A DNA stretch of 64,000 nucleotides from an uncultured bacterium (GTDB lineage: Bacteria; Patescibacteriota; JACMRA01): positions 96,001-160,000 of the forward strand of contig CAWAQU010000003.1 of the NCBI GenBank assembly GCA_963784355.1. The letters run 5' to 3'. This document shows positions 1,411 through 64,000 of the stretch, piece by piece (the stretch's first letter is position 1; each line of letters starts with the position of its first letter). The notes below the pieces were generated by a model. It saw nothing but the letters and a program-made list of their open reading frames with translations. It was not told where the DNA came from and made no database searches. A program made the position numbers and the translations under genes.

Positions 1411-1430
1411 AAAAAATTCCCTATAAGGGA
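1411..1430 (-). terminator. Intrinsic terminator in the proS leader
   Basis: TCCCT-TAT-AGGGA followed by ATTTTTT on the minus strand. Confidence 0.7.
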
Positions 1431-1473
1431 TTGGAGTAAGCTTGAGCCAAAATAAAATAAATCCAGCCCAAGC

Positions 1474-1518
1474 CTATCTAGGCGGGAAATTAACTGAATT
1501 TAAGTTTGAATATTTCAT
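1474..1518 (-). CDS. Putative proS leader peptide MKYSNLNSVNFPPR (14 aa)
   Basis: ATG..TAG between a sigma70 promoter and a terminator; tandem Pro codons CCG CCT. Confidence 0.65.
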   Translation of the reverse strand: MKYSNLNSVNFPPR

Positions 1519-1527
1519 TACTCTTTA

Positions 1528-1557
1528 ATTATACCATAAATTGAAATCTGTTGTCAA
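1528..1557 (-). promoter_or_regulatory. Sigma70 promoter for the proS leader
   Basis: TTGACA-N18-TATAAT with extended -10 TG. Confidence 0.8.
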
Positions 1558-1632
1558 ATTCAACTAGTTTTTGTTAAAAATAATAATTACTCAAATTGAC
1601 ACCTTTTATAACATATTATAACCTTCGCTCAT

Positions 1633-2277
1633 ATGACAAATACAGACTACACAATTTATGTTGCAAACACGCCAAACGGTCAAAAACCTGTAATCCTGCT
1701 TGAAGAACTAGGTATAAATTATGATATTAAATTCGTAAATTTCGCTAAACAGCAACAACACGATGCAGAGTACGTAAAACTAAACCCAAATGGTAAAATT
1801 CCTACTTTAGTTGATCATACAAACGGTAATATAATTTTTGAATCTGCGGCAATTTTAATGTATCTTGCTGAAAAACATGAGCAGTTTTTACCTAAAGAAA
1901 TCAAAAGAAAATATGAGGTAATTGAATGGCTTTTCTTCCAAATGTCTGCCGTAGGACCGATGATGGGGCAACTAGGCCACTTCAAAAATTTTGCTCAAGA
2001 ACAAATTCCATATGCTATAAATCGCTATGAAACTGAAGTAAATAGATTGCTCAAGGTTTTGGATATTCAACTTGAAGGAAAAGAATTTATTGCCGGAGAA
2101 TATTCAATTGCGGATATAAATTTGTGGACCTGGATTAATAGCTACGGATTTCTAAAAATAAGCTTAGATGCTTATCCTTCTCTTAAACAATGGCACGCAA
2201 ACATGGCAGCCAACTCCAAAGTACAATCAGCTTTAGCTAAAATCAAAGAAAGGGAAATGGAAGCCAAAGGAAATTAA
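1633..2277 (+). CDS. Glutathione S-transferase family protein (YfcG/Ure2-like)
   Basis: TPNG, NPNGKIP, FESAAIL, GPMMGQ and SIADI motifs. Confidence 0.92.
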   Translation: MTNTDYTIYVANTPNGQKPVILLEELGINYDIKFVNFAKQQQHDAEYVKLNPNGKIPTLVDHTNGNIIFESAAILMYLAEKHEQFLPKEIKRKYEVIEWLFFQMSAVGPMMGQLGHFKNFAQEQIPYAINRYETEVNRLLKVLDIQLEGKEFIAGEYSIADINLWTWINSYGFLKISLDAYPSLKQWHANMAANSKVQSALAKIKEREMEAKGN

Positions 2278-2939
2278 TTATACCTACTCAAGTCCTCTTC
2301 TCTTCCGTCAGCTCCAACCTCAGCTTTATAATTTAATCCGTCTGCAAAAACCTTCCAGGAAGCCGGAATCTCTCTCAAAACTCCATACATCGTGGTTGAT
2401 AAATAGGCATCTCCAGCTATCTTATATTTTACCTCAAGCCCTACAGAATTGCATAAAAAAGTACTTCTAGGAATATGAAATAACTGAGTAACTACTACAA
2501 TGTTATCAAGCTTGAACACATTTTTGGCTCTCCAGCAGCTATCCACAGTACGCCTACCTGCATAATCAGCTATTACATCATCAGGTGGCACTTCTTTTGA
2601 AATCAAATAATCATACATCACCTGAGGCTCATTGTAATTCATTCTACGATTATCACCGGAGACTAAAATTTTAACCACTTCTTTTTTATTGTACATTTCA
2701 AGGGCAGAATCCAATCTTTCTTGTAAAATGTAGGAAGGGTTACAAACACTTAGTGATTCAGTGCGATCGCAGTAAACTCCCGCCCCTAAAACTAAAGCTA
2801 CTTTAAAATCTTTATTTTGATTTTGGCTAAAAGTAAATATGTTAAAAATCAGAAAAGGACCAACTAAAATTAGATAAATTGCCAAGCTGGTTTTAAGAAT
2901 TTTTATAAACATTATTGAATTATAGTTAATCAACTCCAC
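2274..2939 (-). CDS. SanA/YdcF (DUF218) family protein; start may be 2912
   Basis: VLGAG, VSGDN, DYAGRRT and TQxFHxPR motifs. Confidence 0.88.
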   Translation of the reverse strand: MELINYNSIMFIKILKTSLAIYLILVGPFLIFNIFTFSQNQNKDFKVALVLGAGVYCDRTESLSVCNPSYILQERLDSALEMYNKKEVVKILVSGDNRRMNYNEPQVMYDYLISKEVPPDDVIADYAGRRTVDSCWRAKNVFKLDNIVVVTQLFHIPRSTFLCNSVGLEVKYKIAGDAYLSTTMYGVLREIPASWKVFADGLNYKAEVGADGREEDLSRYN

Positions 2940-4477
2940 CTACCCCTATATTGTAAACTTTCTGCTAAATCTTTTAGTTCTATATTTTCGTGGCCAGCTA
3001 AATCAGCTATTGTTCGAGCCACTTTTAAAATGCGCATGTAGCTTCTGGCAGATAGTTTATATTTATCTACAGCTTGAGCTAGAATCTTTTCTCCTTGCAA
3101 GTCAAGCCGGCAGTATTTTTCTATCTGGGGTAAACTCATCTCAGAATTTGTATGAACATTTTGGTTATAAAATCTTTTAGTCTGAGTATCTCTAGCTTTT
3201 TGGACTCTTTGTCTAACTGTTTCAGAGTTCTCACCTAAAACTTTATTTTGTAGCTCATCTTTACTAGGCCTGTTTACTTCTACTTGCAAATCAATTCTAT
3301 CTAAAATCGGACCACTAAATTTAGCTTGATATCTAGCAATAGCTGCTCTATTTTGAGGTTTATTAAATCCGTCTGCATCGTTTGGATCGTATCCGCTTGG
3401 AGTTGGATTGGCAGCAGCTAAAAGGTAAAATCTACTTGGGTATATTACTGACCCCGAAGCTCTGGAAATAGTCACAAAACCGTCTTCCAAGGGCTGCCTT
3501 AGAGCTTCAATAGACTCACGGTTAAATTCCGGAAATTCATCTAAAAATAGCACTCCACGATGAGCCAAAGAGATTTCTCCCGGCCTCAATTTGGTTCCAC
3601 CGCCAACTAAAGAAATATGAGAAGAGGAATGGTGAGGAGATCTAAAAGGCCGCTTAGTAAACAAATTACCTCCATGCAAAAGCCCTGCTACAGAATATAT
3701 CTGAGTAACTTCCAATATCTCCTTTTCAGTAAGTCTTGGTAAGATAGTTGGGTAGCTTCTAGCAAGTAAAGTTTTTCCCGATCCCGGTTGTCCAATAAAC
3801 AGTACATTATGACCACCACTTGCAGCTATTTCTAGGGCTCTTTTAGCCATTTCTTGCCCCCTTACATAAGCTATGTCATTTATCAAAAGACCGTCTTCAG
3901 TCAAAAACTGCTTTTCATCACTTTCCAGATTTTCAAGATCCAAGGGAACAACCGGATCCAACTTGATTTCTTTATTTAAAAACCTAACTAGTGTATCTAG
4001 ATTTTCTATTGCAAATATTTCAATATCTTTAACCAAAGCCGCCTCAGTGACATTTGCTGCCGGTACAAAAACTTGCTTATAGCCTTGTTTTCTGGCCCAA
4101 AGACAAACCGTCAATACCCCTGTAACGGGTCTAAGTCTACCATCCAGTGACAATTCACCCAAGAATAGGGCTTTTTCTGGTAATTCCACACTAACATGAC
4201 CGGTCAATTTTAAAATACCTACAGCAATAGGCAAATCAAATCCTGAGCCCGATTTTACAATATCTGCGGGAGCAAGATTGATGGTAACTTTTCCCAGTGG
4301 AAACTCAAAACCGCTTTGTTTAAACCCGGATTTTATTCTTTCCTTGCTTTCTTGTATAGCCTTATCCGGCAAACCCACTACTACCACAGCCGGTAAACCT
4401 GGTGATAAATCGACTTCCACTTCTATTTCTCTAGCTTCTAATCCTAATGTGGTAGCCGTGAAGATTTTGGTAATCAT
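2930..4477 (-). CDS. comM: YifB/ComM Mg-chelatase-like AAA+ ATPase
   Basis: VGLPDKAIQES, GQPGSGKT, RSPHH and GEISLAHRGVLFLDE motifs; start placed at MITKIF. Confidence 0.95.
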   Translation of the reverse strand: MITKIFTATTLGLEAREIEVEVDLSPGLPAVVVVGLPDKAIQESKERIKSGFKQSGFEFPLGKVTINLAPADIVKSGSGFDLPIAVGILKLTGHVSVELPEKALFLGELSLDGRLRPVTGVLTVCLWARKQGYKQVFVPAANVTEAALVKDIEIFAIENLDTLVRFLNKEIKLDPVVPLDLENLESDEKQFLTEDGLLINDIAYVRGQEMAKRALEIAASGGHNVLFIGQPGSGKTLLARSYPTILPRLTEKEILEVTQIYSVAGLLHGGNLFTKRPFRSPHHSSSHISLVGGGTKLRPGEISLAHRGVLFLDEFPEFNRESIEALRQPLEDGFVTISRASGSVIYPSRFYLLAAANPTPSGYDPNDADGFNKPQNRAAIARYQAKFSGPILDRIDLQVEVNRPSKDELQNKVLGENSETVRQRVQKARDTQTKRFYNQNVHTNSEMSLPQIEKYCRLDLQGEKILAQAVDKYKLSARSYMRILKVARTIADLAGHENIELKDLAESLQYRGRWS

Positions 4478-4564
4478 GTGCTGAGCTAAGCCATTAAGTA
4501 GCAATTAGTCAAGAACTATATAAGTAGCAAAATCTATTTTAGAGGCAAGTAATACCAATATTAA

Positions 4565-5188
4565 TTAATTCCAAAATCTATCCACTTTACCGGGAAATAC
4601 CCTTAGAATAATTGTAGTGGCATAGATAAAAAGACTTGCCGGTGGACTAACTAAACCAACTAAAATTCCGGCTATATAAAAAGTTACAGCTGTCATCATA
4701 CGGTAATTCACACTCTTTATAAACTCTTTTGTGACCGAGCTATCCACCATTTTGTTTCTTGTAGCATATTGCCAAACGCCAAACAAACTACTAGAGCATA
4801 GTACTAAATTAAAACCGTAAATAATTACACTCACTTTCTCTAAAGGATAATCACCTAATAGAGCAGTTGAAAAAGGTACTAAACCAATAAACATTAAAAA
4901 TACTATGTTTAACCACAAAAATACCCGATTCCCTCTTGTTACAAAATTAATTTGATAATGATGTCCAATCCAATAGACCCCTAAAATTATAAAGCTAACT
5001 ACATAAGTAAATAGTTTTGGCCACAGATGAGACAATTCTTCAATTAAACCAGTAGTCAAGTTAGTATCATGAGCTACATCAGATATTTTTAGCTCTAGTA
5101 TGAGCAAAGTCATTACAATAGCAAAAACTCCATCACTCAAGCCTTCTATTCGATTTACTTTTAGTTCATTTTGTAACTGCTTAGGCAT
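4565..5188 (-). CDS. TMEM175 (DUF1211) potassium channel family protein
   Basis: RIEGLSDGVFAIVMTLL and WxxHH motifs. Confidence 0.9.
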   Translation of the reverse strand: MPKQLQNELKVNRIEGLSDGVFAIVMTLLILELKISDVAHDTNLTTGLIEELSHLWPKLFTYVVSFIILGVYWIGHHYQINFVTRGNRVFLWLNIVFLMFIGLVPFSTALLGDYPLEKVSVIIYGFNLVLCSSSLFGVWQYATRNKMVDSSVTKEFIKSVNYRMMTAVTFYIAGILVGLVSPPASLFIYATTIILRVFPGKVDRFWN

Positions 5189-5277
5189 GATAGAATTGAA
5201 TTGTATAGATTAAAATAATATTTCAACACTAGAGCAGATATAGATTCTAGTCAATTGCTTTTTAAGCAAGCGATTTA

Positions 5278-7113
5278 TTATATATTATTACAGTGAAATT
5301 CTATACTATATCTCTCCTCCGGAACTGCCTCAGCACCAATTAAAGTTTTTTGTTCTATCGAATGAATTTTAAAACTGGAAAGTTTTTTATTAGAATTTTC
5401 TAGAGTATCATTCCACTCTCTACACAAAAAATCAGAAAATAATTTGGTGTATAGGGACTTATCTGAATTTGCAGGATACTCAAGTAAGTAATTGCGCCAA
5501 CTCTGACTCCAAAATCTCCAAGGAGTTTCAGTCTGCCTGCTAAAACTAGGCTCACCGACCGTCTTACTCATCACATCAACTTTAGTACCGTCTACAAGCA
5601 CTCCGGGAATTACAAGCCAGCTGCTTACACTTGTCGGTCTAGAGGCAAACATTCCCCAATACTGATCTAAACGTAACGTGTAAACTGTTTGAGAGAAAAA
5701 TTTATCTGCAAAAAAATCTTTTTTAATAACATTACCAATATTCCAAAATAAGACTAATACAAGACAGGTAATTGCAAATCCTTGAGCTAGTAATTCTCCA
5801 AAGCGGGAATACACCTCCCTAGGTTTTATATAGTTTATAAAGTTTGAAATTTTATGTCTTTCACGTGCAATTATTGCATAAATTTTTGTGCCCAAACTAT
5901 ACAAAGGTTTTATTTTTAAAAGCCAAGCTAACCATCTAGTGAGCAGTTTATTTTCGAATATTTTTATAAAGGCATCTATTTTAAAGTATTTTTGTCCGGT
6001 TTCATCTTCCACTACAATCGAATTCATTGCCGGATCCAGATCATAAATTTCCTTATTATCTTGTATTGCAGACAGTTTTAAATTATTAGTTTTACCCAAA
6101 ATACAAACTCCTGTTTTGCAAAATTCACAAGAATTATCATAGTATATTTTTAGAGTTTGCTTGCTTTTAACAGCTCTCTTTTCTAAAAAGTCCCAAAAAG
6201 AACTAGGTAAAAACAATAACAGGCCTGCATAGCAAAAAAGTTGGAAAAGCCCAGCATACAGCATCAAGGATAGCATCCCATGAACATATGTGAAAAATAC
6301 AAATAGGCTTAAATAGCGCAGTTTTTTAGTGAAAATTGGAGAAAAGAGTAAAAGTGGCCCCAAGAATTGAAAATAAATATAAACGATAGTTCCCAATTTC
6401 ATAAGTACCGGGTAATCAAGCAAATAATATCCAAAAGGTGTTACTATATAGTTAACTTGCATGGAATATTCTACTGCAGTAAAACCCCGATTATAATTAA
6501 ACAAATCCAAAACATTATGTGTTTGTGCAAAAATACCCTTCCATTCAAATGAATCTTTTAAAAACCAATTTATTATATAGAATAAGAACATTTGTAGCAA
6601 AACAGCCACAGTAGCCACGGAAAGCCAGGTATTTTTCTTAATCTGCTCATTTACTTGCCAAATTGAATCTAGAGACCACTTTTTTCCAAGCGGAAGTAAC
6701 ATACCCCAAAATAGCAACATTCGAAATAGCTGATCACCGTAATTTAATACTAAGGGATTTCTATTTTGCAGAGAAACAAGTAAAAACCATGAAACCACTG
6801 TTGACAGCCTACTTCTATATCCAACTATTAATGAGAGAGCAAAAAATAACTGAATTGCAAATAAAAATACTTGAAACCAATAATTGCCACTTGCTAGATG
6901 TATTGAAATAAAACTGGGATTAATCAGCTCGAAAAAGCTATTCCTTGGAAGAATACCGCTGTCAGTGTAAAAAGCATACAGATTCAAAAATTTAGGACCT
7001 AAATATATTAAAATTGTGGTACCAAGTACAATTCTAAAAGCAGCTAATGCCCTTAAATCAATTGAAAATAAGTCTCTGAATTTTGACTTAAGTAAGTTAA
7101 ATGTTGGACGCAT
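5278..7113 (-). CDS. HTTM-domain membrane protein with DCC1-like (DUF393) thiol-disulfide domain
   Basis: DLRALAAFRI, SLQNRNP, WSLD, YYDNSCEFCK and LDQYWGMF motifs. Confidence 0.8.
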   Translation of the reverse strand: MRPTFNLLKSKFRDLFSIDLRALAAFRIVLGTTILIYLGPKFLNLYAFYTDSGILPRNSFFELINPSFISIHLASGNYWFQVFLFAIQLFFALSLIVGYRSRLSTVVSWFLLVSLQNRNPLVLNYGDQLFRMLLFWGMLLPLGKKWSLDSIWQVNEQIKKNTWLSVATVAVLLQMFLFYIINWFLKDSFEWKGIFAQTHNVLDLFNYNRGFTAVEYSMQVNYIVTPFGYYLLDYPVLMKLGTIVYIYFQFLGPLLLFSPIFTKKLRYLSLFVFFTYVHGMLSLMLYAGLFQLFCYAGLLLFLPSSFWDFLEKRAVKSKQTLKIYYDNSCEFCKTGVCILGKTNNLKLSAIQDNKEIYDLDPAMNSIVVEDETGQKYFKIDAFIKIFENKLLTRWLAWLLKIKPLYSLGTKIYAIIARERHKISNFINYIKPREVYSRFGELLAQGFAITCLVLVLFWNIGNVIKKDFFADKFFSQTVYTLRLDQYWGMFASRPTSVSSWLVIPGVLVDGTKVDVMSKTVGEPSFSRQTETPWRFWSQSWRNYLLEYPANSDKSLYTKLFSDFLCREWNDTLENSNKKLSSFKIHSIEQKTLIGAEAVPEERYSIEFHCNNI

Positions 7114-7167
7114 ACATTGTATTATACGTATTAGAATAACTCAACTAAATAAAAAGGTCAAATTAAA

Positions 7168-7869
7168 CTATGCCAAACACTGAAAAATCCTCAAATTAGG
7201 GTGTGCAAGCAAGAATTTAGCTGGAAACTCGACAGCTGATTTTTCTCCTTCCAACATTTCAGATAGGATATCACTTTTATTGTCTCCAGTAATGATCAAA
7301 AAAATTTCTTTACTGTTGAGTATACTCTCTACGGTCAAACTGATACGTTTGGTTACGCTAAAGTCCTTGGGTGCAGAGGTTTCAATTACTGTTTTTTCTT
7401 GGTGCTTTAAGTATTTTCCATTTGGAAACAAAGACGCAATATGTCCATCAGGCCCGACACCTAGAATAGTAAGATCAAAGTAAGGTCCATCCAAAGTTTC
7501 AAGCTTTTCAATGCACTCTTTTATTGTCATCTCAATTGGTAGCTTGGTATTAAAAAAATTCCATTCTTTTGCCTCTTTTACTGCAAGATCCAAACTATGA
7601 GCAATATTAAATTGATTTGATTCAGGATCAGTAGGAGCCACATAGCGCTCGTCTGTTTGATATATTTCAATTTTGTCCCATTCTAAAATAGGATTTAAAG
7701 AAATTCTTGAATAGAGAGGAAGTGGCGTTTTTCCACCTGATAAAGCAATTCTTGCTGAACCGTTTTGAGCAATAGCATCAAAAACTCGATCAACTAAAAA
7801 ATCTTCTACATCTTTGAAAAGTACATCTGGAGTTTCAAACTCAGTAACTGCAGGTCTATATATTTTCAT
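7168..7869 (-). CDS. pgl: 6-phosphogluconolactonase
   Basis: ALSGGKTP, DERYV and LGVGPDGHIASLFP motifs. Confidence 0.93.
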   Translation of the reverse strand: MKIYRPAVTEFETPDVLFKDVEDFLVDRVFDAIAQNGSARIALSGGKTPLPLYSRISLNPILEWDKIEIYQTDERYVAPTDPESNQFNIAHSLDLAVKEAKEWNFFNTKLPIEMTIKECIEKLETLDGPYFDLTILGVGPDGHIASLFPNGKYLKHQEKTVIETSAPKDFSVTKRISLTVESILNSKEIFLIITGDNKSDILSEMLEGEKSAVEFPAKFLLAHPNLRIFQCLA

Positions 7870-7870
7870 G

Positions 7871-8083
7871 CTATCTAAGGCTACTTAAGAAACTTATTAA
7901 AAAGGGATTAACTAAATATAAAATAATTGACAGTACAATACACCCTATACCTGGAGACAATAAATTAAAGCCCCCTTCCTTTTTGCCTCCACCAAAAATT
8001 AATCCAATCAAGCTAACTAAAACCAATATGATGCCTGCTGCTCCAAAAAAATATGGAAGCCGTGTTAAAATATTTTCAATCAT
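7871..8083 (-). CDS. Small two-TM hypothetical protein
   Basis: 70-aa ATG ORF with two hydrophobic segments, ending 1 nt before pgl. Confidence 0.7.
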   Translation of the reverse strand: MIENILTRLPYFFGAAGIILVLVSLIGLIFGGGKKEGGFNLLSPGIGCIVLSIILYLVNPFLISFLSSLR

Positions 8084-8092
8084 AAAATTAAA

Positions 8093-8193
8093 TTGTTTAT
8101 TAGTAATCAGAATACTTAGTTACTTGCAACGGAGTTAAAATCTGTAAGTTTTTGTTTCCAAAGCTTGCTTTGGTTTCTGATACTAGCTCATTT
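8093..8193 (+). repeat. Dispersed intergenic repeat, copy A
   Basis: 8147-8193 matches the reverse complement of 59627-59674 at 45/48; the full length aligns by eye with 40594-40692. Confidence 0.8.
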
Positions 8194-8217
8194 ACATGTT
8201 TGTTTATATAAATTCAA

Positions 8218-8293
8218 TGGTGGACCCGGTGGGATTCGAACCCACGACCAAAAGATTAAGAGTCTTCTGCTCTACCAACTGAGCTACAGATCC
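8218..8293 (-). tRNA. tRNA-Lys (anticodon CTT), CCA encoded
   Basis: GGATCTGTAGCTCAGTTGGTAGAGCAGAAGA-CTCTTAA-TCTTTTGGTCGTGGGTTCGAATCCCACCGGGTCCACCA cloverleaf. Confidence 0.97.
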
Positions 8294-8412
8294 AACATGT
8301 AAAAAATAGCTTCAGTTATCATGTTTTGTCAAGATTTGATTTGATGAGCTAGAATGAGTTTACTGGCCGAGATTTTGCCATCATTTCAGAGGAGACTAAA
8401 CAATGACATTAT

Positions 8413-9195
8413 ATGTTGACACAAGCTAAAAACTTAAATGTGCTAGATTCAACCAGATTAAGTGGAATAAAAATGATAAAATTAAATCGTAAATACAGCT
8501 ACTGGACTCAAGAACAATTAAATCAACTTGTCGAATTGTTTCAAACTAATATTAAATGGTATAATAAGTTACCAAAAATTGAAAGTGCAGAAGCAAAAGA
8601 AGAGTTGGTTTTTTTGATGCAGGAGCTTCTCGAGCAAAACGCAATGGCAATAGCCAATAATGGGCCCAACACTGACCAAGACCGCAAAGAAATTGATACA
8701 ATTATAATTCACCACACAAGTGGTACAGAAGAAATTATCAGTCTTCCAGTTGAGCAATACTTAGACTATGTGAATGCACTGCAATTGTTAAGACTTTATG
8801 CTTCAGTTCATGCCAATCCAAATTACCCTGATGAGTACAACAAACCAATCTGGTCTAACCATTTCTATGAAGGCAAACAAACTTTTATTGCTTATCATTG
8901 GTTAATATGGCGAAGTGGTGAAAGCCGCCAGGTACTTCAAGATCACCAAATAGGCTGGCAAGCAGGAAATTGGACTTCCAACTGCAGAAGTATAGCAATT
9001 GCTTTTGTTGATAATCTAGAAGAGGCTGGCCCAACAGAGGAAGCTTTGACCACTGCTTCAAAAATCATTAAACAGTATAAAGAGAAGTATCCAATAACCC
9101 AGATTCTTGCCCATAAGGAAGTAAATACAAAAACTTCATGTCCAGGAGGTAAATTTGATGGTGAAAATGGATGGAAGAACCAATTAATTGCTTAA
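8413..9195 (+). CDS. N-acetylmuramoyl-L-alanine amidase (Amidase_2/PGRP-like); start may be 8473
   Basis: IIIHHT, AYHWLI, WQAGNW, SIAIAF and HKEV..TSCPG zinc-ligand pattern. Confidence 0.85.
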   Translation: MLTQAKNLNVLDSTRLSGIKMIKLNRKYSYWTQEQLNQLVELFQTNIKWYNKLPKIESAEAKEELVFLMQELLEQNAMAIANNGPNTDQDRKEIDTIIIHHTSGTEEIISLPVEQYLDYVNALQLLRLYASVHANPNYPDEYNKPIWSNHFYEGKQTFIAYHWLIWRSGESRQVLQDHQIGWQAGNWTSNCRSIAIAFVDNLEEAGPTEEALTTASKIIKQYKEKYPITQILAHKEVNTKTSCPGGKFDGENGWKNQLIA

Positions 9196-9207
9196 GAAAA
9201 GTTGATT

Positions 9208-9699: not shown

Positions 9700-9782
9700 A
9701 GACCAATTTTGAGCTTATTGTGTGATAACAAGTTAGAAGCAAATCTTATATTTTAGCAAGTTTTGTCAGACCCTCTTTAAAT

Positions 9783-11033: not shown

Positions 11034-11101
11034 ATTGCATGAATTTAAGTCAACACCTTAATTAGAGCAAAATAATTTTTTTTGTAAATAGGGATTTAAT
11101 T

Positions 11102-11509: not shown

Positions 11510-11624
11510 AAAATTGTATTAAAAATTTGTATTATATATAACATAGCACATTTTTTTAGCTTTTGCAATTATACAGCACCCTCGCACATCTTTATTTTAA
11601 AACACTTGCTAAATATCAATAATC

Positions 11625-12239: not shown

Positions 12240-12252
12240 AAGAGTTTTTGTA

Positions 12253-13620: not shown

Positions 13621-13697
13621 ATTTATGTCTTATGCAATAATTTTACACTAATTAAGTCAGCTTGTCAAAAGATAATTATTATTGTAAAATATTATAA

Positions 13698-14384: not shown

Positions 14385-14733
14385 GAGAAAAGAATTTTTA
14401 ATCATTTACTAAATAGCATTCACATTTACATCAAGCACATTTTTTTGTCGAATTTTACGATATCCCGCAATCATTTATAGGTAACTATTTTCACTACTTT
14501 GCCAGCTATGTCTGGATAAAGTTTACAGGAAATTTGAAAGTAAGATAAATAGTATTTACGGCGAGTTTATTGCCAATTATACAGTAAGAATGAACTAACT
14601 ATATATATAGAATTATAAAAATAATTCCTCTGAATTTATCAAGTCTTTTTGTTTTAAACTGTATACAACGTGAATACACAAAATAATATTTTAAGTATAC
14701 CACTCCAACTATTACAAAATATTTTAGGCAAAG

Positions 14734-14756
14734 AAAAATTGCCCCTTTCGGAGCAA
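14734..14756 (-). terminator. 5S rRNA terminator
   Basis: TTGCTCC-GAAA-GGGGCAA followed by TTTTT. Confidence 0.8.
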
Positions 14757-14766
14757 CTAATCAGAT

Positions 14767-14882
14767 ATCGGCTTTGGCCTACTTTCCCCGGAATCTGCAT
14801 TCCAGTATCATCAGCGTAGCTGCGTTTCAAGACTCTGTTCGGAATGGGAAGAGTTGGTTCCACAGCACTTGGAAAACCGACA
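14767..14882 (-). rRNA. rrf: 5S rRNA, stand-alone; ends approximate
   Basis: CCCATTCCGAAC loop C, GATGATACT and GGGAAAGTAGG motifs; terminal helix TCGGTTTT/AAAGCCGA. Confidence 0.93.
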
Positions 14883-14887
14883 TTTAT

Positions 14888-14917
14888 ATATTAAACACAT
14901 GATTTAGATTTTGTCAA
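14888..14917 (-). promoter_or_regulatory. Sigma70 promoter for the 5S rRNA
   Basis: TTGACA-N18-TAATAT ending about 6 nt before the 5S 5' end. Confidence 0.7.
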
Positions 14918-14918
14918 C

Positions 14919-16304
14919 CTATTTTTTATTTGATTTTGGTCTTCTTTTAGTTTTCTCTTCAACTATTGAACTTGCTATATCGCTTTGCTCTTCTTGAGGT
15001 AACTCTGTTTTAGTGGTAACCTCTTCTATTTTTTCTGCTTTTACTTCATTTATCAAAGTCTCTTTTGGTAAAGCTTTATCAGAACTCTTTTCAGCTGTTC
15101 TCTTTTTTGTTAGTAAAAGATAAGCTACAATTCCCAACAAAAGTAAAACTACAAATCCTAATGTATATGTAAGGAACTTTTCACTTTTGGAATCTGCAGG
15201 CTCAGTCTTAGCCTCGTGCTTTTCCTCTTTTGGTGTCTCTTCTTTAATAGTTTGAGTTTGTTTTGTACCCTTATTTTCAATTTTGGGTTGAGTTTTACCG
15301 GACTTATATTTCTCAAAATCCGATTTTATTTGATCCAAATTAGCTTGATTCATTTCAAATTCTGTTTCTACCATTTTTGTAGGACTGATTTCCTTGACTT
15401 CAGATTTATAACTTGAAACAACCAGTGGGTCATCAAATGTAAATCTAGCCTTGTACTTACCTACCTGCCACTTACTTCCGGGAATAGACAAATAGTCCAC
15501 TTTAACAAGAGAATCTGTATAACCATAGTCACGATTAAACTTGGTCTCAATAGTTTTTCCATCAGGGCCAGTCATTTCTACTTTACCTACCATTTTTGTA
15601 AACACGTTTCCGATATTCTTAAAATTCATGTTTAGGTAAACTTCTTCATTATTTAAATGTGCGTTATCTTTAATGAAATTACTATATAGCTCTTCGGATG
15701 TGTATTTTTTATCTGGAGTAATGAATTTAAAGTTTGTAAACTCAAATCCTTTTTTCAGATCACCTGGAATTGTAATATAAAATCTTACTCCTACTCTACT
15801 TACTACATTAAGACCTGAACCTTGAGGGCCTTTTGGTGCCTCTTTAACTGCAACTACACCTGCATATTCGCCTGATTTTACATCAGTTGGTACAGTTAGT
15901 TTAAAACCGACATTTACCATTTTTTTACCAGGCACAGTGACCTCATTACTGTCTAATTTAATCCAATTACCTACCCCACTAAGATCTTCTTGATCTGTAA
16001 AAGAAAAAGATCCGTTTGCAGAAGAGTAATCCTCTGGATCAACTAACAAGCGTTTCTCTTCAGGGTCAAAATTAGAAATGGAAATACTGCTCTGGAAACT
16101 GTCCCCAGGCTTTAAAACTTTTATAAAAGAGCTTTTAGTATAGATTTCTTTTGGATCATAATTTTCACTATTTGGTCCTACAGCAATACCGCTGTTGCCA
16201 GCTGCTTCCTGTGTATTTACAGCAGCAGTAAAAGTAAAGACTGGCATCAAAGCAAAAATTAGAGTTCCTGTAGCAATGTTTTGTAAGGTTTTTGATGAGA
16301 ACAT
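14919..16304 (-). CDS. DUF916-like (WxL-interacting) cell-surface protein with C-terminal TM
   Basis: Signal peptide, LKPGD, VGNWI, PxDxxSGEYAG, RVGVRFYITIPG and KNIGNV motifs, TM anchor. Confidence 0.75.
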   Translation of the reverse strand: MFSSKTLQNIATGTLIFALMPVFTFTAAVNTQEAAGNSGIAVGPNSENYDPKEIYTKSSFIKVLKPGDSFQSSISISNFDPEEKRLLVDPEDYSSANGSFSFTDQEDLSGVGNWIKLDSNEVTVPGKKMVNVGFKLTVPTDVKSGEYAGVVAVKEAPKGPQGSGLNVVSRVGVRFYITIPGDLKKGFEFTNFKFITPDKKYTSEELYSNFIKDNAHLNNEEVYLNMNFKNIGNVFTKMVGKVEMTGPDGKTIETKFNRDYGYTDSLVKVDYLSIPGSKWQVGKYKARFTFDDPLVVSSYKSEVKEISPTKMVETEFEMNQANLDQIKSDFEKYKSGKTQPKIENKGTKQTQTIKEETPKEEKHEAKTEPADSKSEKFLTYTLGFVVLLLLGIVAYLLLTKKRTAEKSSDKALPKETLINEVKAEKIEEVTTKTELPQEEQSDIASSIVEEKTKRRPKSNKK

Positions 16305-16404
16305 AATTATTTGAGAGGTATGATTTAAGCAATTTACAGCTTTCTAACTATTTAAAAAGCTCTAAGCTGCCGACACATTTGTGTCAAGCTGGCTTTCATA
16401 TGAT

Positions 16405-17067
16405 TTATAGACCTGAAATGTCTACTGTAAGAGTACCACTATATGATTGAGCAGTAACAATTTCTTTAGTTGGAGCAGGATATTCTCCTTTAGCAGGAAT
16501 TGTAAGACTAGTTTCAATAGTACCTCCATAACTACCTCCACCTACGCTCTGATTTGAAGGGGCATCAAGTAAATTAAAATTATTACTATAGCCAACATTC
16601 GTTAAAGCTGAAAGAGAAGAGATTGTTTGAGAGGAGTTGTACGTTGTAAGGCTTGATACAAGATCAGGACCTCCTGTTACAGCTACATTTTTAACCTTAC
16701 CGGCTAAATATTTAGAAGCTGTTCCAAAATTAGCACTAACATCAGAAGCCAATAAAATTTTCTTACTGGCTAAGGTCTGTCCAGCCAAATTGGTATATTT
16801 GAACGTAGAAGTCCAACCACCTAAAGTACCACGATAATCACTAATTGTAAAAGGAATATCTGTTACACTGGTCTGGGCTGTATTGTTTAAAGTGATTCCA
16901 CTCAAAGTATAACTCGGATTTGGAATACTTATCTCAATCTGACCTGGAGCAACCGCTAAAGATACTTGAGTATTGTCTGTTGTAGCAGCTGAAACTGGGA
17001 GAGCGGTAGCAACACCTGCAGCTGCAAGTAGCATAAAACTTGCTTGTAATTGTTTTGACGTAATCAT
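16405..17067 (-). CDS. WxL-domain-like secreted protein
   Basis: Signal peptide; ISDYRGTLGGW and terminal YSGTLT motifs. Confidence 0.7.
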   Translation of the reverse strand: MITSKQLQASFMLLAAAGVATALPVSAATTDNTQVSLAVAPGQIEISIPNPSYTLSGITLNNTAQTSVTDIPFTISDYRGTLGGWTSTFKYTNLAGQTLASKKILLASDVSANFGTASKYLAGKVKNVAVTGGPDLVSSLTTYNSSQTISSLSALTNVGYSNNFNLLDAPSNQSVGGGSYGGTIETSLTIPAKGEYPAPTKEIVTAQSYSGTLTVDISGL

Positions 17068-17170
17068 AGATATTTGTTTTTTGTGTTTGTTTTGTTTTTA
17101 CAAACTGATAAGTGGTACTTAAAAAGTTGCAACTTCTTTTGTGTACTTAACATCAATTATATACCTATTT

Positions 17171-18331
17171 TTAGACCTGGTCAAATTTTTGTAATTTAAG
17201 CACCAAATGCCCCACAAAAGAGTCTTTTCTGCTGTATGTTAAATACTTATCAGTATCAAAATTTATATAGTTATAGCTTGTATTTGCCACCAAATCATCT
17301 AAAAAGTTCGGTAAATGTGACTTGCCGTGTATTCGATAAAATGGTAAACAAAAAACAATTTCAGAAATATCAAGATTATCAGCATGTTTTATTAACTTCT
17401 GCCAAATTCCTTTTAAATTATCCCATTCTTGTTCAATCTGCTCTACTGTTGGAGTCCGCTTAAAGTTGAAACCCAAGTAACCTTCTGTCACAATAGCTAA
17501 TCCATTTATTTTCTCTTTACTTAAGTACTTAGTTGCCTGATCTAAATCACGAGCATCTAGTGTAAATATTGCAGCAAGCTTTTCCGAACCCAAGTCCACT
17601 TTTCTAAATCTACTCCAATAATTCAAAGCAAAGTCAAAATTATCCTTGATTTCTTGTTTTAGCACTTCCCCATCTAAATCCGAAGCATACTGCCGATTTT
17701 TTAGATCAATCCCAGCAACTAATAATCTCCCTGAACCACAGAAAGGGTCCCAAATGATTTGCTTTTTAGTATAATTCTGCAATGTTCTAGCCAATTTTAA
17801 ATTGATAAGCCCCCTACTCATATCTCCTGCTGGCAAGCCAGTGTCCAAGTTTTGCCAAAATTGCTGATCAAAAAAATTTCTTATTCTTCCTAAAATAATT
17901 TTATCTTCGTATATGAAAGTAATTAACCAATTTTTTGTTTGTTTCCAATGACCGTATGCCAAATTGTTAGTGTAATCTTGTATATTTATTTTTTTGGATC
18001 CCACTTCTTTAGAAACTATATAAGCTTTTTTGTGCAGCTCAACAGGCAAAACCAAGCCAAGTTTCTTTATTGGCTCGTCTTGACTCAATAGATAGTCTCT
18101 AAGTGTTTGTAAAATTTCAGACTCCAATTCACTAGTCTTACCTGTATTTTCCCAAGATTTTATAATTTCACCTTGATAAACTAAAGAACCTGTGGTGTTT
18201 ACGTCCAGAAATGTATTTCCTAGAAGGTATGCTTTGTCGGTAATAAAACCAGTTTCCTGAGTTAGTTTAGTAAATTCGGAGATTCCAAATTGAGGTTGAT
18301 GTCCTAATCTGTAAAAGTATTTAAAGTCCAT
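17171..18331 (-). CDS. Trm11/UPF0020-like SAM-dependent RNA methyltransferase
   Basis: KLAR, WDPFCGSG, SDLD, LDAR and VTEGYLG motifs. Confidence 0.75.
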   Translation of the reverse strand: MDFKYFYRLGHQPQFGISEFTKLTQETGFITDKAYLLGNTFLDVNTTGSLVYQGEIIKSWENTGKTSELESEILQTLRDYLLSQDEPIKKLGLVLPVELHKKAYIVSKEVGSKKINIQDYTNNLAYGHWKQTKNWLITFIYEDKIILGRIRNFFDQQFWQNLDTGLPAGDMSRGLINLKLARTLQNYTKKQIIWDPFCGSGRLLVAGIDLKNRQYASDLDGEVLKQEIKDNFDFALNYWSRFRKVDLGSEKLAAIFTLDARDLDQATKYLSKEKINGLAIVTEGYLGFNFKRTPTVEQIEQEWDNLKGIWQKLIKHADNLDISEIVFCLPFYRIHGKSHLPNFLDDLVANTSYNYINFDTDKYLTYSRKDSFVGHLVLKLQKFDQV

Positions 18332-18333
18332 AA

Positions 18334-19632
18334 TTAATTGCCTGAAGAATCGATATTTTTTATTGTTGTTTTAGTTGAAACGAGTTTTCTAAATTCTAAT
18401 AACGCCGTATAGGTACTCAATACTATAAATTCACTTTTTGCCTCCATTATTTTATTCAAAAGTTGATCAAGGTTTTCAATATAATTTTCTGAATTCACAA
18501 CACTATTTGCATATTCAAATCTCAAAAGTATGTCCAGACCCCTAGTTCCACCGGTATAAATTTGATTTATAGGTTGAGTGGTTACAAAATCTTCCAAATC
18601 AATATCCCAAAGCCAAGAAACATCTTTGCCATCTGCTATTTTGTCATTGATCAGAACAGCTAAGTTAATTGCTTGTTTTTGGTTATTATCGGAAATATAG
18701 TTTAAAACTTGATTGAATCCGGCCGGATTTTTAACTAACATTAATTTAATCCTACTTTCCCCTACTTGAATTTCTTCACCCCTGCCAAAAACAGGTTCAA
18801 AGTTCATAATAGGATCTAGGGCTCTTGTACCAAACTCTTCATAAGCAGGTAAAAAAGCTGCCAGAGCATTATAAATATTATATGTCCCGGGTAATTTGAG
18901 GTTGATTTTGTGGATTTTGTTATCTCCCGTTGCTACTTGAAAATTATTTCCATGAATGTTGTAAGCAATAAATTTTTCGCTGAAATTAATTTCTATATCT
19001 TCCGTACTTTCGAATTGTGGTTTTTTAGCTAAAGGTAGATTTAAACCAAAGCCATAAATTTTACCTTTGAAGTCATTTACACACTTAAGCAGTTTTTTGT
19101 CATCAGAATTCAAGTACAGTTTAAAATCAGGTTTTTTGGAACTTAATTTGATTGATTCCTCAAAATAATGCAGAGTTTTATCAATTTCACCATAAGCATC
19201 CAATTGGTCTCTAAAAATATTAGTTAATATCAATTTATCCGGTAAAATATATTTGCACAGCTTTGGTAAAGAAGCTTCTTCAACTTCTAAAATGGCTATT
19301 TTATTGATGTTTCTGCCTTGACCATCCAAATTCAATAGTAAGCTGCTAGCCACTCCTCTTAAAATATTAGCACCACCCCTATTTGTACAAACTTGTACTC
19401 CGTTTTGTTCATAAATATCAACCAGGATTGCTCTAGTTGTAGTTTTACCGTTGGTTCCGCTAATGAAAATAATCTGCTCAAAATCTTTGCCTATATAACC
19501 TAAAATGTCTATGAAGTATTTCTCTATCACGAGCCCGGGCAAACTTGTACCACTACCTTTTTTTAAAGCTCTACTTAAATAAGCCAGGGTTTTAGCAAAA
19601 TATGAAAGTAGTATGGTTTTTAATCTCAGCAT
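18334..19632 (-). CDS. murT: MurT-like Mur ligase (DUF1727), lipid II amidation subunit
   Basis: GTSLPG, GTNGKTTT, NIFRDQLD, LVKNPAG, ADGKDVSWLWD and TYTALL motifs. Confidence 0.9.
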   Translation of the reverse strand: MLRLKTILLSYFAKTLAYLSRALKKGSGTSLPGLVIEKYFIDILGYIGKDFEQIIFISGTNGKTTTRAILVDIYEQNGVQVCTNRGGANILRGVASSLLLNLDGQGRNINKIAILEVEEASLPKLCKYILPDKLILTNIFRDQLDAYGEIDKTLHYFEESIKLSSKKPDFKLYLNSDDKKLLKCVNDFKGKIYGFGLNLPLAKKPQFESTEDIEINFSEKFIAYNIHGNNFQVATGDNKIHKINLKLPGTYNIYNALAAFLPAYEEFGTRALDPIMNFEPVFGRGEEIQVGESRIKLMLVKNPAGFNQVLNYISDNNQKQAINLAVLINDKIADGKDVSWLWDIDLEDFVTTQPINQIYTGGTRGLDILLRFEYANSVVNSENYIENLDQLLNKIMEAKSEFIVLSTYTALLEFRKLVSTKTTIKNIDSSGN

Positions 19633-19635
19633 ATT

Positions 19636-20277
19636 TTAATTTTGTGGAACAATTTGCTTGGGGCTAGGTATTTTTTCTACGATTGTTTCAAGTAATTTAT
19701 CAACTCCCAATCCTGTCTTAGCGCTTACATGCAATATTTCATCTCTTGGATAACCTAAAATTCTTTCAATTTCCTCACTTCTAGTTGCAATATCCGCATT
19801 TGGTAAGTCAATTTTATTTAAAACGGGGATAATAGCCAAATCCTGTTCCATTGCTGAGTATAAATTTGCTAGAGTTTGAGCTTGAATACCTTGGGTAGCG
19901 TCTACTACAAGCACCGCGCCTTCACAAGCGGCCAAACTACGGGAAACTTCATAAGAAAAATCCACATGTCCGGGTGTATCTATTAAGTTTAAAACGAAGT
20001 TTTTGCTTTTCCAAGACTCGTATTTTTGGATATCTTCAGTACTCAGATCAATCATTTCATCATTTTCAGCAGTAAACTGATAATTATAATTCATTCTAAC
20101 AGGCTGTAACTTTATTGTGATGCCTCTTTCTCTTTCCAAATCCATTTTATCTAGGGCCTGCTCTTTCATATCACGCATAGTAACAGTGCCAGTAAGCTCC
20201 ATTAATCTGTCGGCTAAAGTACTCTTCCCGTGATCAATATGGGCAATAATACAAAAATTTCTAATAAACTCAAGCAT
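19636..20277 (-). CDS. lepA: Elongation factor 4 (LepA), G domain only
   Basis: [50 protein letters not shown] and SAKTG motifs; 213 aa, ends after IPSP. Confidence 0.9.
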
Positions 20278-20330
20278 GTTTGATAAATGGCTTGTAATTT
20301 AGCCCTTGTCAACTTGTCCAACTAAAGAAA

Positions 20331-21263
20331 TTAGCTACTCATTTTTATAACCTCTTTAATTGCCAAAAAGCCCGCATCATGATCTCCCAATTTAGGGTTT
20401 TTGTCAGGCATAATAATATAGCAATCTATTGGGGCAACATGCTTCTGGATATCATCTGTTGCAAAAATCTGACCTGACTTTACTTTGGTACCGGTTTTTA
20501 CGTCATCTACAATAAATTTAAAATTAATTCCCGGCTTTATAGGGGCGATAAATTTGTAAACTTCAATTACATCTTGGTTATCTGTTTCCACAACTTCTAT
20601 AATAGGCAATTTTTCCTGATCCATTAAATTAAAGTGGTTGATCGCCATAACAACATGCTCCAAAGCTACATTTACAGTTGAACTAGCAGTATTATTACCA
20701 CACTCTATTGCCAGGCTTGGTATATTTAGCTGATTTGCCACACTTACTATTAATCCTGGAGTATGAGTTTCTTCAGTAGAGAAATGCAGTTTTATATTGG
20801 TAATTTTAGTGCTTAAATCTTTACTTTTTTCATCGGAAGCATAAATTACAGCCTGAAAATTACCCACGCTTACGGAGTGCATATCCAGTAAAAAACTAAT
20901 ATCCTTGTTTTCTTTTAAGAATTTCATCACCTCTATAGCCCTTCTTTCTTCAACTGAATTGGGCAAAATATTATCAGTAAATACTCTATTCATATTGATA
21001 TCAATAAATCTTAGATTCTGGGCATATGCTTCAGGATTACCTATAATAAAAGTAATTTTACCATGTTTAAGTGCATGGTTATTTTTAGTAAAATATTTGT
21101 GAAAATCAATCATAGCCTCTACACTAGCTGGTTCACTACCGTGTAAAGCACCCACAAAAACTAGATGTGGCCCCGGCAGTCCTGAATCAATTTGAAAACT
21201 ATGAGACAAGCTTGTGTTGGCATGCTGTTGGAAATATTTAATATTACTTTCTGTGTTTGACAT
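20331..21263 (-). CDS. AstE/AspA (M14-like zinc) deacylase/peptidase family protein
   Basis: HGSE, GNP, NMNRVF, LDMHS and IECG motifs; start placed at MSNTES. Confidence 0.87.
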   Translation of the reverse strand: MSNTESNIKYFQQHANTSLSHSFQIDSGLPGPHLVFVGALHGSEPASVEAMIDFHKYFTKNNHALKHGKITFIIGNPEAYAQNLRFIDINMNRVFTDNILPNSVEERRAIEVMKFLKENKDISFLLDMHSVSVGNFQAVIYASDEKSKDLSTKITNIKLHFSTEETHTPGLIVSVANQLNIPSLAIECGNNTASSTVNVALEHVVMAINHFNLMDQEKLPIIEVVETDNQDVIEVYKFIAPIKPGINFKFIVDDVKTGTKVKSGQIFATDDIQKHVAPIDCYIIMPDKNPKLGDHDAGFLAIKEVIKMSS

Positions 21264-21276
21264 AGGCTTATATAAC

Positions 21277-21299
21277 AAAAAATCCCCTTTAGGTGGGGA
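21277..21299 (-). terminator. Leader terminator upstream of the AstE-family gene
   Basis: TCCCC-ACCTAAA-GGGGA followed by TTTTTT. Confidence 0.75.
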
Positions 21300-21334
21300 A
21301 TTAAATTTAATTTTAATAATGATAATAAACTAAA

Positions 21335-21391
21335 CTATTTCCCCTTGTGTGGAGTGACCATAATAATACAAAGGAGACCAGAGTTTAACAT
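21335..21391 (-). CDS. Putative leader peptide MLNSGLLCIIMVTPHKGK (18 aa)
   Basis: ATG..TAG between promoter and terminator; the 3' codons contain the anti-terminator AAGGGGAA. Confidence 0.68.
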   Translation of the reverse strand: MLNSGLLCIIMVTPHKGK

Positions 21392-21404
21392 ACTATATAC
21401 TTTA

Positions 21405-21433
21405 ATTATATTGAAAAATGCAAATTGTGTCAA
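21405..21433 (-). promoter_or_regulatory. Consensus sigma70 promoter
   Basis: TTGACA-N17-TATAAT. Confidence 0.85.
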
Positions 21434-22185
21434 GAAACCCAACTCAACCAAGTTTGGATAATTTTTATTTGGTCTTCATCTTTTAGGTCCAATTCAGGGT
21501 GCCATTGCATCCCCAAAATTTTTTTGTTTTTTATAGAGACTGCTTCAATTAAACCATCCGGAGCCACTGCTTCTACTTGTAAACCCTCGCCCAATTTGTC
21601 TACTCCTTGATGATGTATACTTGTCACCATGATTGTATTTTTATTTAAAACATCATATAGGATTCCATCTTTTTTTAAATCTACTGGGTGCACTTTTCCG
21701 GTTTCTACACTTTCATTATCAAAATCTCCATCTTCCTGCTTTTCTGCAGTATATTTAATGTGCTGCACTGGAGCATTTTCATCAAGGTGCTGAATTAAAG
21801 TACCGTTTTGGACTACGTTCAACATCTGGAAGCCACGACAAACAGCTAGTACAGGCAAATTCCTTTCCATTGCAGCTCTAATTAAATAGTAGTCATACCA
21901 ATCTTGAAAATTTTCGCTAGTTTTATTTTCCGGTCCAGTAGTGTACATACCTGGATCAATGTCTTTACCTCCAAGTACTATTAATCCGTCAGCCTCGCTG
22001 ATATATCTGGAAATTTCATCTTTTATGGTTTCCATATCATTAATTTTTGTGTGGAAAAAAGGTACTTGTGGTAAAAAACTCTGTTCAAGTAAAAAATCGG
22101 ACCATTTACTATGAATATAAATTATGGGCAAACCTTCTTTATAGGTCATAAACCTTGGTGAAATTAGTATTTTTTTCATTTTCAT
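21430..22185 (-). CDS. Peptidase C26 / gamma-glutamyl-gamma-aminobutyrate hydrolase family (class I GATase)
   Basis: GGKDIDP, AVCRGFQ, SIHHQG and QWHPE (Cys-His-Glu triad). Confidence 0.9.
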   Translation of the reverse strand: MKMKKILISPRFMTYKEGLPIIYIHSKWSDFLLEQSFLPQVPFFHTKINDMETIKDEISRYISEADGLIVLGGKDIDPGMYTTGPENKTSENFQDWYDYYLIRAAMERNLPVLAVCRGFQMLNVVQNGTLIQHLDENAPVQHIKYTAEKQEDGDFDNESVETGKVHPVDLKKDGILYDVLNKNTIMVTSIHHQGVDKLGEGLQVEAVAPDGLIEAVSIKNKKILGMQWHPELDLKDEDQIKIIQTWLSWVS

Positions 22186-22198
22186 AAAATTTAATATT

Positions 22199-22220
22199 AA
22201 AAAATCTCCCTAAATGGGAG
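22199..22220 (-). terminator. Leader terminator upstream of the peptidase C26 gene
   Basis: CTCCC-ATTTA-GGGAG followed by ATTTTTT. Confidence 0.75.
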
Positions 22221-22253
22221 TGATAAAAAATTGGTATAGATAATTTTGCTCCC

Positions 22254-22310
22254 TTAATTTGGATTGTCTATGTCACAAGTACAAGCTAAAAGTAACGCAA
22301 AATTTAACAT
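22254..22310 (-). CDS. Putative leader peptide MLNFALLLACTCDIDNPN (18 aa)
   Basis: ATG..TAA starting 6 nt after the -10 box; GGGAG anti-terminator directly after the stop. Confidence 0.68.
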   Translation of the reverse strand: MLNFALLLACTCDIDNPN

Positions 22311-22316
22311 GCTTTA

Positions 22317-22345
22317 ATTATGGCAAATAATCTATTTCGTGTCAA
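22317..22345 (-). promoter_or_regulatory. Sigma70 promoter
   Basis: TTGACA-N17-CATAAT. Confidence 0.8.
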
Positions 22346-63885: not shown

Positions 63886-64000
63886 CACTATAAATAAGTA
63901 TAAGAAATTATTCGATTTTGTCAAGGACTCAAAAACTTATTTAGTTTGAAAAAGTTTGGATTGGTTTTAGATCAAATGTAGTTATGTACAGCTGAGAATG

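Follow-up and report, generated by a model that had tools for sequence, protein, structure and literature searches.

Leader-peptide attenuators are classically known from the trp, his, thr, leu, ilv and pheA operons, whereas T-boxes, which occur in Firmicutes and their relatives, are leaders of about 200 nt with conserved sequence that bind uncharged tRNA directly. Patescibacteria, also called the candidate phyla radiation (CPR), depend on hosts and are unable to synthesise most amino acids, and to our knowledge almost nothing is known about how their genes are regulated. Here we analyse a stretch of 64,000 nt (hereafter the window, whose numbering is used for all positions unless a contig or locus is named) from an uncultured patescibacterium of the JACMRA01 lineage (assembly GCA_963784355.1, contig CAWAQU010000003.1, positions 96,001 to 160,000), in which three minus-strand leaders, called L1, L2 and L3, precede proS, encoding proline--tRNA ligase, and two hydrolase genes. 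Together with three leaders elsewhere in the same genome, upstream of thrS, lysS and serS, they probably constitute ribosome-mediated transcription attenuators built on one plan.

Attenuators of aminoacyl-tRNA synthetase (aaRS) genes are on record for pheST in gamma-proteobacteria and have been predicted before trpS and leuS in Streptomyces, as passages of PMC1262725 state. Passages of PMC2965389 describe histidine leader peptides before hisS paralogs in Bacilli and give Proteobacteria and Actinobacteria as the only groups from which leader-peptide systems were then known. In mycobacteria, leaderless polycysteine short open reading frames (sORFs), the 'Cys ribulon', act on translation by unmasking a ribosome-binding site, according to the part of 10.1101/834739 on which we draw. 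The author of an earlier note on the window knew of no description of such leaders in Patescibacteria, and our own search of the literature outside supplementary files agrees, having returned no report that ties this kind of attenuation, or leader peptides, to Patescibacteria or the CPR; a search on thrS leader peptides brought up nothing specific.

Six leader cassettes of one build

The window lies in contig 3 of a genome (G000) of 1.14 Mb, 33% G+C and 13 contigs that is 81% complete, and the organism is known from this assembled genome alone. The earlier note had described three minus-strand cassettes, each with a promoter, the pentamer TAAAG, an ATG 6-13 nt after the -10 box, an ORF of 14-18 codons, a hairpin with a U-run and a gene behind it, and all of these parts were found in place. 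A composite pattern of consensus promoter plus TAAAG matched three times in the window and in none of the 100 dinucleotide shuffles of the window that served as a control. Genome-wide, the strict promoter pattern occurred at 26 sites, with TAAAG coming next only at L1, L2 and L3, and an independent scanner recovered the same three promoters (12, 12 and 11 of the 12 hexamer positions) and their terminators.

The three cassettes are real, but the set is larger than the note supposed. A scan of the whole genome for promoters with a hairpin and U-run behind them yielded two further units of the same size, before thrS and lysS, and a sixth, before serS, was found by inspecting the region upstream of every aaRS gene located. 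The genome therefore holds six cassettes of the same build, each co-oriented with and directly upstream of its gene: proS, an AstE-like gene, a Peptidase C26 gene, thrS, lysS and serS. A cassette is present at 4 of the 15 aaRS gene starts examined. Searches of a protein library identified thrS (560 bits) and serS (341 bits) above the cut-off and lysS (413 bits) just below it, the lysS query being without its N-terminus.

In all six cassettes an intrinsic terminator (hairpin and U-run) stands between the sORF and the gene, 86-105 nt after the -10 box in the five that were scored. The stems are short, with 5-6 bp, and have the form YCCC/GGGR in L1, L2, L3, thrS and lysS; the GC hairpins and U-tracts that the note reported are present in L1, L2 and L3, but each stem has 5 pairs, of which 3-4 are G-C. 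TAAAG follows the -10 box in four of the six and also in a Thr leader of G008, a genome of another genus. At or just after the sORF stop codon, each cassette carries a G-rich segment that is a copy of the terminator 3' arm and is able to pair with the 5' arm. The clearest sORFs with respect to codon content are those of thrS, in which codons 6-11 of 16 are all Thr, and of lysS, in which 5 of the 16 codons are Lys.

A spacing of 6-7 nt between the -10 box and the start codon, the usual distance of a transcription start, is seen in L3, lysS and serS and in the foreign leaders of G008, G014, G018, G022 and L115 (two with GTG), and one of 9-13 nt in L1, thrS and L2. Judged from these distances, the sORFs are apparently leaderless or nearly so. 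As the earlier note said of its three ORFs, there is no Shine-Dalgarno (SD) sequence before them, but this is not special to the cassettes: SD-like 4-mers are not enriched before gene starts in G000 (45 of 742, 6.1%, versus 52 of 742, 7.0%, at a control position). The SD-less sORFs thus follow the rule of the genome, and the G-rich leader segments are not ribosome-binding sites.

For L2, L3 and serS, only 19-27 nt separate the terminator from the start codon of the gene. This gap leaves no room for a second promoter, and transcripts that begin before the cassette would also run into its terminator. These genes can therefore be expressed by read-through only, and the terminators of L2, L3 and serS must be conditional.

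Terminator folding and ribosome position

The build of the cassettes suggests the following mechanism. With a near-consensus promoter of the sigma-70 type, the RNA would begin either right at the start codon of an ORF of 12-18 codons or a few bases ahead of it, so that translation of this ORF, in a genome without SD usage, would proceed with no leader or almost none. The G-rich segment that copies the terminator 3' arm could pair with the C-rich 5' arm and would thereby act as the antiterminator. A ribosome that reaches the stop codon would cover this segment, allowing the terminator to form and transcription to end about 100 nt after the promoter. When charged tRNA is scarce, the ribosome would stall earlier, the upstream pairing would be broken and the G-rich segment would be free; the antiterminator would then form and RNA polymerase would read into the gene. 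The parts, their order, the alternative pairings, the codon runs of thrS and lysS and the presence of Thr-run leaders in further genomes are observed; we infer the transcription start, the translation of the sORF, the coupling of transcription to translation and the response to amino-acid supply.

To model this mechanism, each leader was folded from its start to the end of the hairpin with a ribosome footprint masked codon by codon. The switch score was the terminator probability with the ribosome at the stop codon minus the minimum inside the ORF, and dinucleotide shuffles of everything upstream of the terminator served as the control (60 per G000 leader and 40 per foreign leader). For thrS, the modelled terminator probability was 0.95 in the free RNA, fell to 0.09-0.21 with the A site on the Thr codons and was 0.96 from codon 13 to the stop, a switch of 0.88 that 1 of 60 shuffles reached. 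For lysS, it stayed at 0.00 through codon 10 and reached 0.8 at codon 12 and beyond (switch 0.81; 0 of 60 shuffles). The serS leader, in which the terminator was melted with the ribosome at codons 6-10, gave a switch of 0.86 (0 of 60), and L2, open at codons 1-11, gave 0.68 (1 of 60); over these codons the L2 terminator probability was at most 0.05, rising to 0.21 at codon 12 and to 0.68-0.70 with the ribosome at codon 13 or any later position up to the stop. Eight Thr leaders from other genomes, described below, switched by 0.66-0.97, a range that 0 of 40 shuffles reached in each case, and their minimum fell on a Thr codon in six and on a neighbouring Ile codon in two. A position-dependent switch between terminator and antiterminator was thus predicted in 12 of the 14 leaders modelled. 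Attenuation is well supported for the family represented by thrS and lysS, where the codon runs suggest that the cognate amino acid is the signal sensed; the model gives good support for serS and moderate support for L2.

The order of promoter, terminator and gene demands regulated termination of some form, which would also be provided by a metabolite, a protein or uncharged tRNA binding the leader RNA, with the sORFs incidental. Such conditional terminators, not read by a ribosome, would accommodate the long stable hairpin that L1 carries between sORF and terminator and the sORFs of L1, L2, L3 and serS, which are without clear cognate-codon enrichment. However, the six leaders have no sequence or structure in common between promoter and terminator, and they are merely about 100 nt long. 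At gathering and at permissive thresholds, none of the six matched an Rfam family; the sole hit to a leader family, that of Phe_leader on L2, scored 19.2 bits (E 2.6), below the family threshold of 55, and the leaders of thrS, lysS and serS matched no Rfam amino-acid leader family. The earlier note had seen no T-box before proS, valS or pheT, and this extends to the whole 81%-complete genome: the T-box covariance model (RF00230) gave 0 matches there, and none in the leader regions at E values up to 5-10, in a search that matched 5 of 14 control genomes, 2 of them above the family cut-off. Binding of a ligand would, moreover, leave unexplained the Thr runs found in nine genomes and the switch window that coincides with the Thr codons. 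We consider this explanation unlikely and the ribosome-read attenuator the better account.

L2 occupies the minus strand between the two hydrolase genes. Its promoter (21405-21433; -35 box 21433-21428, -10 box 21410-21405) matches the consensus at 12 of 12 positions, the -35 box overlapping the stop codon of the C26 gene, and TAAAG (21400-21404) follows directly. The sORF (21335-21391; 18 codons and stop) begins with an ATG at 21391, 13 nt after the -10 box, and its last codons contain the antiterminator strand (21339-21344), a G-rich copy of the terminator 3' arm that pairs with the 5' arm. The terminator (21277-21299) consists of a hairpin at 21299-21283, with a 5-bp stem and a 7-nt loop, and a U-run at 21282-21277. 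The gene behind it (20331-21263, minus strand) encodes an AstE/AspA-family hydrolase (succinylglutamate desuccinylase / aspartoacylase-like; all NCBIfam hits are below cut-off), and its ATG at 21263, 19 nt after the terminator, is more likely to be the start than the TTG at 21278 given by the ORF tool. Downstream on the same strand lies the gene for a 213-aa protein with an EF-Tu-type GTP-binding domain only (19636-20277), adjoining that for a MurT-like ligase (18334-19632); both possibly share the read-through unit of the AstE-like gene.

In L3, also on the minus strand, the promoter (22317-22345; -35 box 22345-22340, -10 box 22322-22317) matches at 11 of 12 positions and is followed directly by TAAAG (22312-22316). 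The sORF (22254-22310; 18 codons and stop) starts with an ATG at 22310, 6 nt after the -10 box. Directly after its stop codon lies the candidate antiterminator strand (22249-22253), a copy of the terminator 3' arm that offers 5 bp only, and the terminator (22199-22220) has a hairpin at 22220-22206 (5-bp stem, 5-nt loop) and a U-run at 22204-22199. The Peptidase C26 gene (21430-22185, minus strand; gamma-glutamyl hydrolase / class-I amidotransferase-like; PF07722, 168.6 bits) has its ATG 20 nt after this terminator.

The sORFs of L2 and L3 open with an identical tripeptide, and at positions 6-8 each contains two or three Leu codons side by side, which fits the sensing of leucine or a general sensing of slow translation. 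The latter could apply more widely: L2, L3, serS and perhaps L1 may be attenuators that are read by the ribosome and respond to any slowing of translation, whether through shortage of any amino acid or through ribosome-targeting compounds. Consistent with this, the L2 terminator is abolished in the model with the ribosome anywhere in codons 1-11, the serS window spans codons 6-10, these windows hold a mixture of Leu, Ile, Cys, Thr and Ser codons, and untranslated free RNA favours the terminator (0.58-0.96) in five of the six G000 leaders. However, the adjacent Leu codons of L2 and L3 could equally mark leucine sensing. We regard general sensing as a possibility of the lesser kind for these leaders; the codons sensed in the leaders of serS, the AstE-like gene and the C26 gene are perhaps Leu or Ile, or perhaps any at which translation slows.

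Recurrence of the leaders and evidence against attenuation

As the leader DNA itself is not conserved (a DNA-level search in 40 relatives matched the proS coding region alone and no leader), the upstream regions of orthologous genes were compared. A Thr-run sORF followed by a terminator was found in eight other genomes, upstream of thrS in seven and directly before a DUF2000 gene in one, making nine genomes with G000. Among relatives, 5 of 30 thrS loci had an sORF with 4-7 consecutive Thr codons and then a terminator, and 5 of 80 thrS loci in a species collection had a Thr-run sORF and terminator, three of these being genomes already counted among the relatives. A stringent DNA pattern, in which four Thr codons are followed after 40-70 nt by a C-rich/G-rich hairpin with U-run, matched 5 of the 27 genomes from the class and 5 of the 401 sampled across the phylum. 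Every match belonged to a single family, and no genome matched the reversed pattern that served as the control. Runs of at least four identical residues in the units of sORF and terminator before thrS numbered 11, of which 10 consisted of Thr; the units before proS (20 loci) and lysS (16 loci) had none.

The peptides of the Thr leaders are unrelated outside the Thr run, except that some have a common hydrophobic stretch before it. In G018 and G022, which belong to the same genus, five Thr codons are kept even though two synonymous changes have occurred and the run is displaced by one codon. In G008, the Thr leader (locus L209, contig 60) stands directly before the DUF2000 gene (103 bits), with thrS about 4 kb further downstream; behind DUF2000 come a weak, below-cut-off match to DUF1653 and then a separate GNAT acetyltransferase gene. 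In G018, a 144-aa ORF (locus L097, 221-655) lies between the Thr leader and thrS and resembles a PemK/MazF-type toxin by eye alone. The ThrRS of G000 itself (locus L034, 531-3467, contig 3) is 978 aa long and has matches to GNAT/RimI-like acetyltransferases at residues ~129-298, before the synthetase core, with weaker acetyltransferase matches extending to ~490.

Several observations weigh against a ribosome-read attenuator, for the family as a whole or for single members. The earlier note had proposed to check whether sORFs, control codons and helices are conserved; the control codons and the alternative pairings persist in the Thr leaders of nine genomes, with the remaining peptide free to drift, but no comparable L1-type leader or Pro-run sORF was found upstream of proS in 19 relatives, no comparable leader or Lys-rich sORF upstream of lysS in 15 relatives, and no comparable leader upstream of serS in 29 relatives. 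None of the four aaRS leaders is present in G001, a genome of the same genus. The serS sORF has a single Ser among its 12 codons, and no single amino acid is prominent in the sORFs of L2 or L3. L3 had a switch score of 0.28, which 6 of 60 shuffles reached, with its antiterminator of merely 5 bp, and is marginal as a modelled attenuator; this antiterminator, being transcribed first, could win kinetically over the terminator. The folding model computes equilibria rather than kinetics, and the footprint of -15 to +13 around the A-site codon is an assumption. In the public sequencing runs searched, no RNA run contained the sequence; one DNA run had a small share of matching words. Finally, an A-run on Lys codons, about 120 nt downstream of the lysS start in G000 (locus L035, ~2018-2069, contig 6), contains a +1 frameshift that places the first 45 codons and the 611+ after them in different frames. 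Programmed frameshifting as a conserved feature of lysS was rejected, the frames coinciding in 15 of the 15 relatives in which both pieces were found; an error of assembly or a lesion of recent origin probably accounts for the frameshift.

L1 departs from the other cassettes in its behaviour. Its promoter (1528-1557, minus strand; -35 box 1557-1552, 18-nt spacer, -10 box 1533-1528) has both boxes at consensus (12 of 12), followed directly by TAAAG (1523-1527), the probable start-site region, and by an sORF (1474-1518; 14 codons and stop) whose ATG at 1518 lies 9 nt after the -10 box. The sORF has two adjacent Pro codons at positions 12-13, the only ones among the 14, and these fall within the segment that a stalled ribosome would cover. 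The long hairpin (1434-1478) starts at the sORF stop codon, and the terminator (1405-1430) comprises a hairpin at 1430-1418 (5-bp stem, 3-nt loop) and a U-run at 1416-1411. Between the terminator and the ATG of proS (2-1276, minus strand, running off the window start; TIGR00409, 378 bits against a cut-off of 306.7) lie 141 nt with weak promoter-like matches. The switch score was 0.09, 32 of 60 shuffles scored as high or higher, and the terminator was predicted at every ribosome position, so that L1 as a ribosome-mediated attenuator is unsupported by the model. On the plus strand, a gene of the glutathione S-transferase family (1633-2277) diverges from the L1 promoter region.

These features of L1, including its absence upstream of proS in the 19 relatives, are what would be expected if some cassettes, L1 above all, were free-standing small units, that is, a small RNA or a gene for a peptide of 14-18 residues with a constitutive terminator, the gene behind having its own promoter. 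For the set as a whole we consider this unlikely: the gaps between terminator and start codon in L2, L3 and serS are too short to agree with it, all six units point at the adjacent gene, and the peptides are not conserved beyond the codon runs. L1 itself may be such a unit or may exert control of a kind outside the model. Ribosome-mediated attenuation, as the earlier note proposed it, is sustained for the family (by the thrS and lysS codons, the Thr leaders in eight other genomes and the switch in most leaders modelled) and for L2, but it is marginal for L3 and finds no switch in L1.

The C26 protein is present in 5 of 26 genomes of the family, including G000, at no more than 40% identity. No comparable leader was found upstream of the gene in the four homologous loci inspected, and no close relatives of the C26 locus were confirmed in metagenome contigs or genome contigs.

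Other loci with some of the features were also considered. A relaxed rule gave 26 candidates, from which the six cassettes were set apart by the quality of the promoter and by the gene immediately behind. C2:2455, C6:16405 and C12:171323 were rejected because each is the terminator of the gene before it and the promoter-like match falls within a coding region. C3:110917 was rejected as the 5S rRNA unit; the 5S rRNA gene (14766-14881, minus strand) has a near-consensus promoter ~35 nt upstream and a terminator after it in the relaxed scan. At C12:30503-30670 (plus strand), a C-rich/G-rich hairpin and U-run lie 31 nt before a 159-aa ORF, with a weak promoter-like site and a 16-codon GTG ORF upstream, and this may be a seventh cassette. 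At ~63800-63924 of the window (minus strand; C3:159924), a near-consensus promoter is followed ~50 nt on by a hairpin and U-run and ~125 nt further by an ORF of at least 1000 aa, which could be another leader of different build.

With regard to the aaRS complement, a class-I aaRS of the Ile/Leu/Val/Met type (1108 aa; 23019-26345, minus strand) carries an N-terminal Ham1-like domain (non-canonical NTP pyrophosphatase), and no leader cassette was found upstream of it. AlaRS is represented in G000 by a 313-aa piece on contig 9 and stop-containing fragments on contig 13, and ArgRS (PF00750) gave no match in the 81%-complete genome. A tRNA gene lies at 8221-8293 of the window (minus strand).

Comparison with known attenuation systems

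If the six cassettes act as proposed, transcription and translation would be coupled in these cells, leaderless initiation would be routine and consensus promoters of the sigma-70 type would be recognised. The ribosome itself would gauge the supply of charged tRNA, to which the cell would respond by raising the output of synthetase and possibly of salvage hydrolase. The proportion of transcripts that end at each cassette, relative to those that read through, would then serve as a built-in reporter of the limiting amino acid in a natural sample of an uncultured symbiont.

A broader view can be offered only tentatively: in this family of Patescibacteria, leaderless leader peptides might form a ribosome-read regulon that replaces T-boxes and sets the transcription of aaRS genes, of DUF2000 (in G008) and possibly of salvage hydrolases, through a modular cassette that is quickly gained, re-targeted and lost. 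Were this so, peptides or cell-wall fragments may be the source from which the hydrolases recover amino acids, and the presence of six cassettes in G000, set against the lack of all four aaRS cassettes in G001 of the same genus, would mean that regulation is far more dynamic than the small set of regulators suggests.

Like T-boxes, the cassettes have aaRS targets, would give more enzyme when charged tRNA is scarce and act through a choice between terminator and antiterminator; unlike T-boxes, the leaders described here carry an ORF. The parallel that the earlier note drew with mycobacteria extends only to the codon-run sORFs, which in the present cassettes are apparently leaderless; the mycobacterial ones act on translation, whereas those described here precede intrinsic terminators. 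So far as the part of the Cys ribulon report used here goes, both systems appear to place leaderless sORFs with runs of one codon before several operons as ribosome-read sensors with a joint response, whereas the present cassettes have an intrinsic terminator after the sORF, belong to a genome without SD usage and have no Cys run, and Thr, Lys and possibly other amino acids would be sensed.

With the classical attenuators, the cassettes share an sORF and an intrinsic terminator and, before thrS and lysS, an abundance of regulatory codons; a mutually exclusive antiterminator set by the position of the ribosome is predicted for thrS, lysS, serS and L2, and aaRS genes are possible targets of both. 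They differ from these attenuators in that the sORF starts 6-13 nt after the -10 box without an SD sequence, the whole unit is only about 100 nt long, and the strand meant to form the antiterminator duplicates the terminator 3' arm and lies at the stop codon of the sORF; moreover, the host is a patescibacterium with little or no amino-acid biosynthesis, and two of the targets are hydrolase genes rather than biosynthetic genes. The mechanism is therefore of a known kind, and its novelty lies in bringing together apparent leaderless initiation, an intrinsic terminator whose 3' arm is duplicated at the sORF stop, several aaRS genes and hydrolase genes as targets in one small genome, and the group to which the host belongs.

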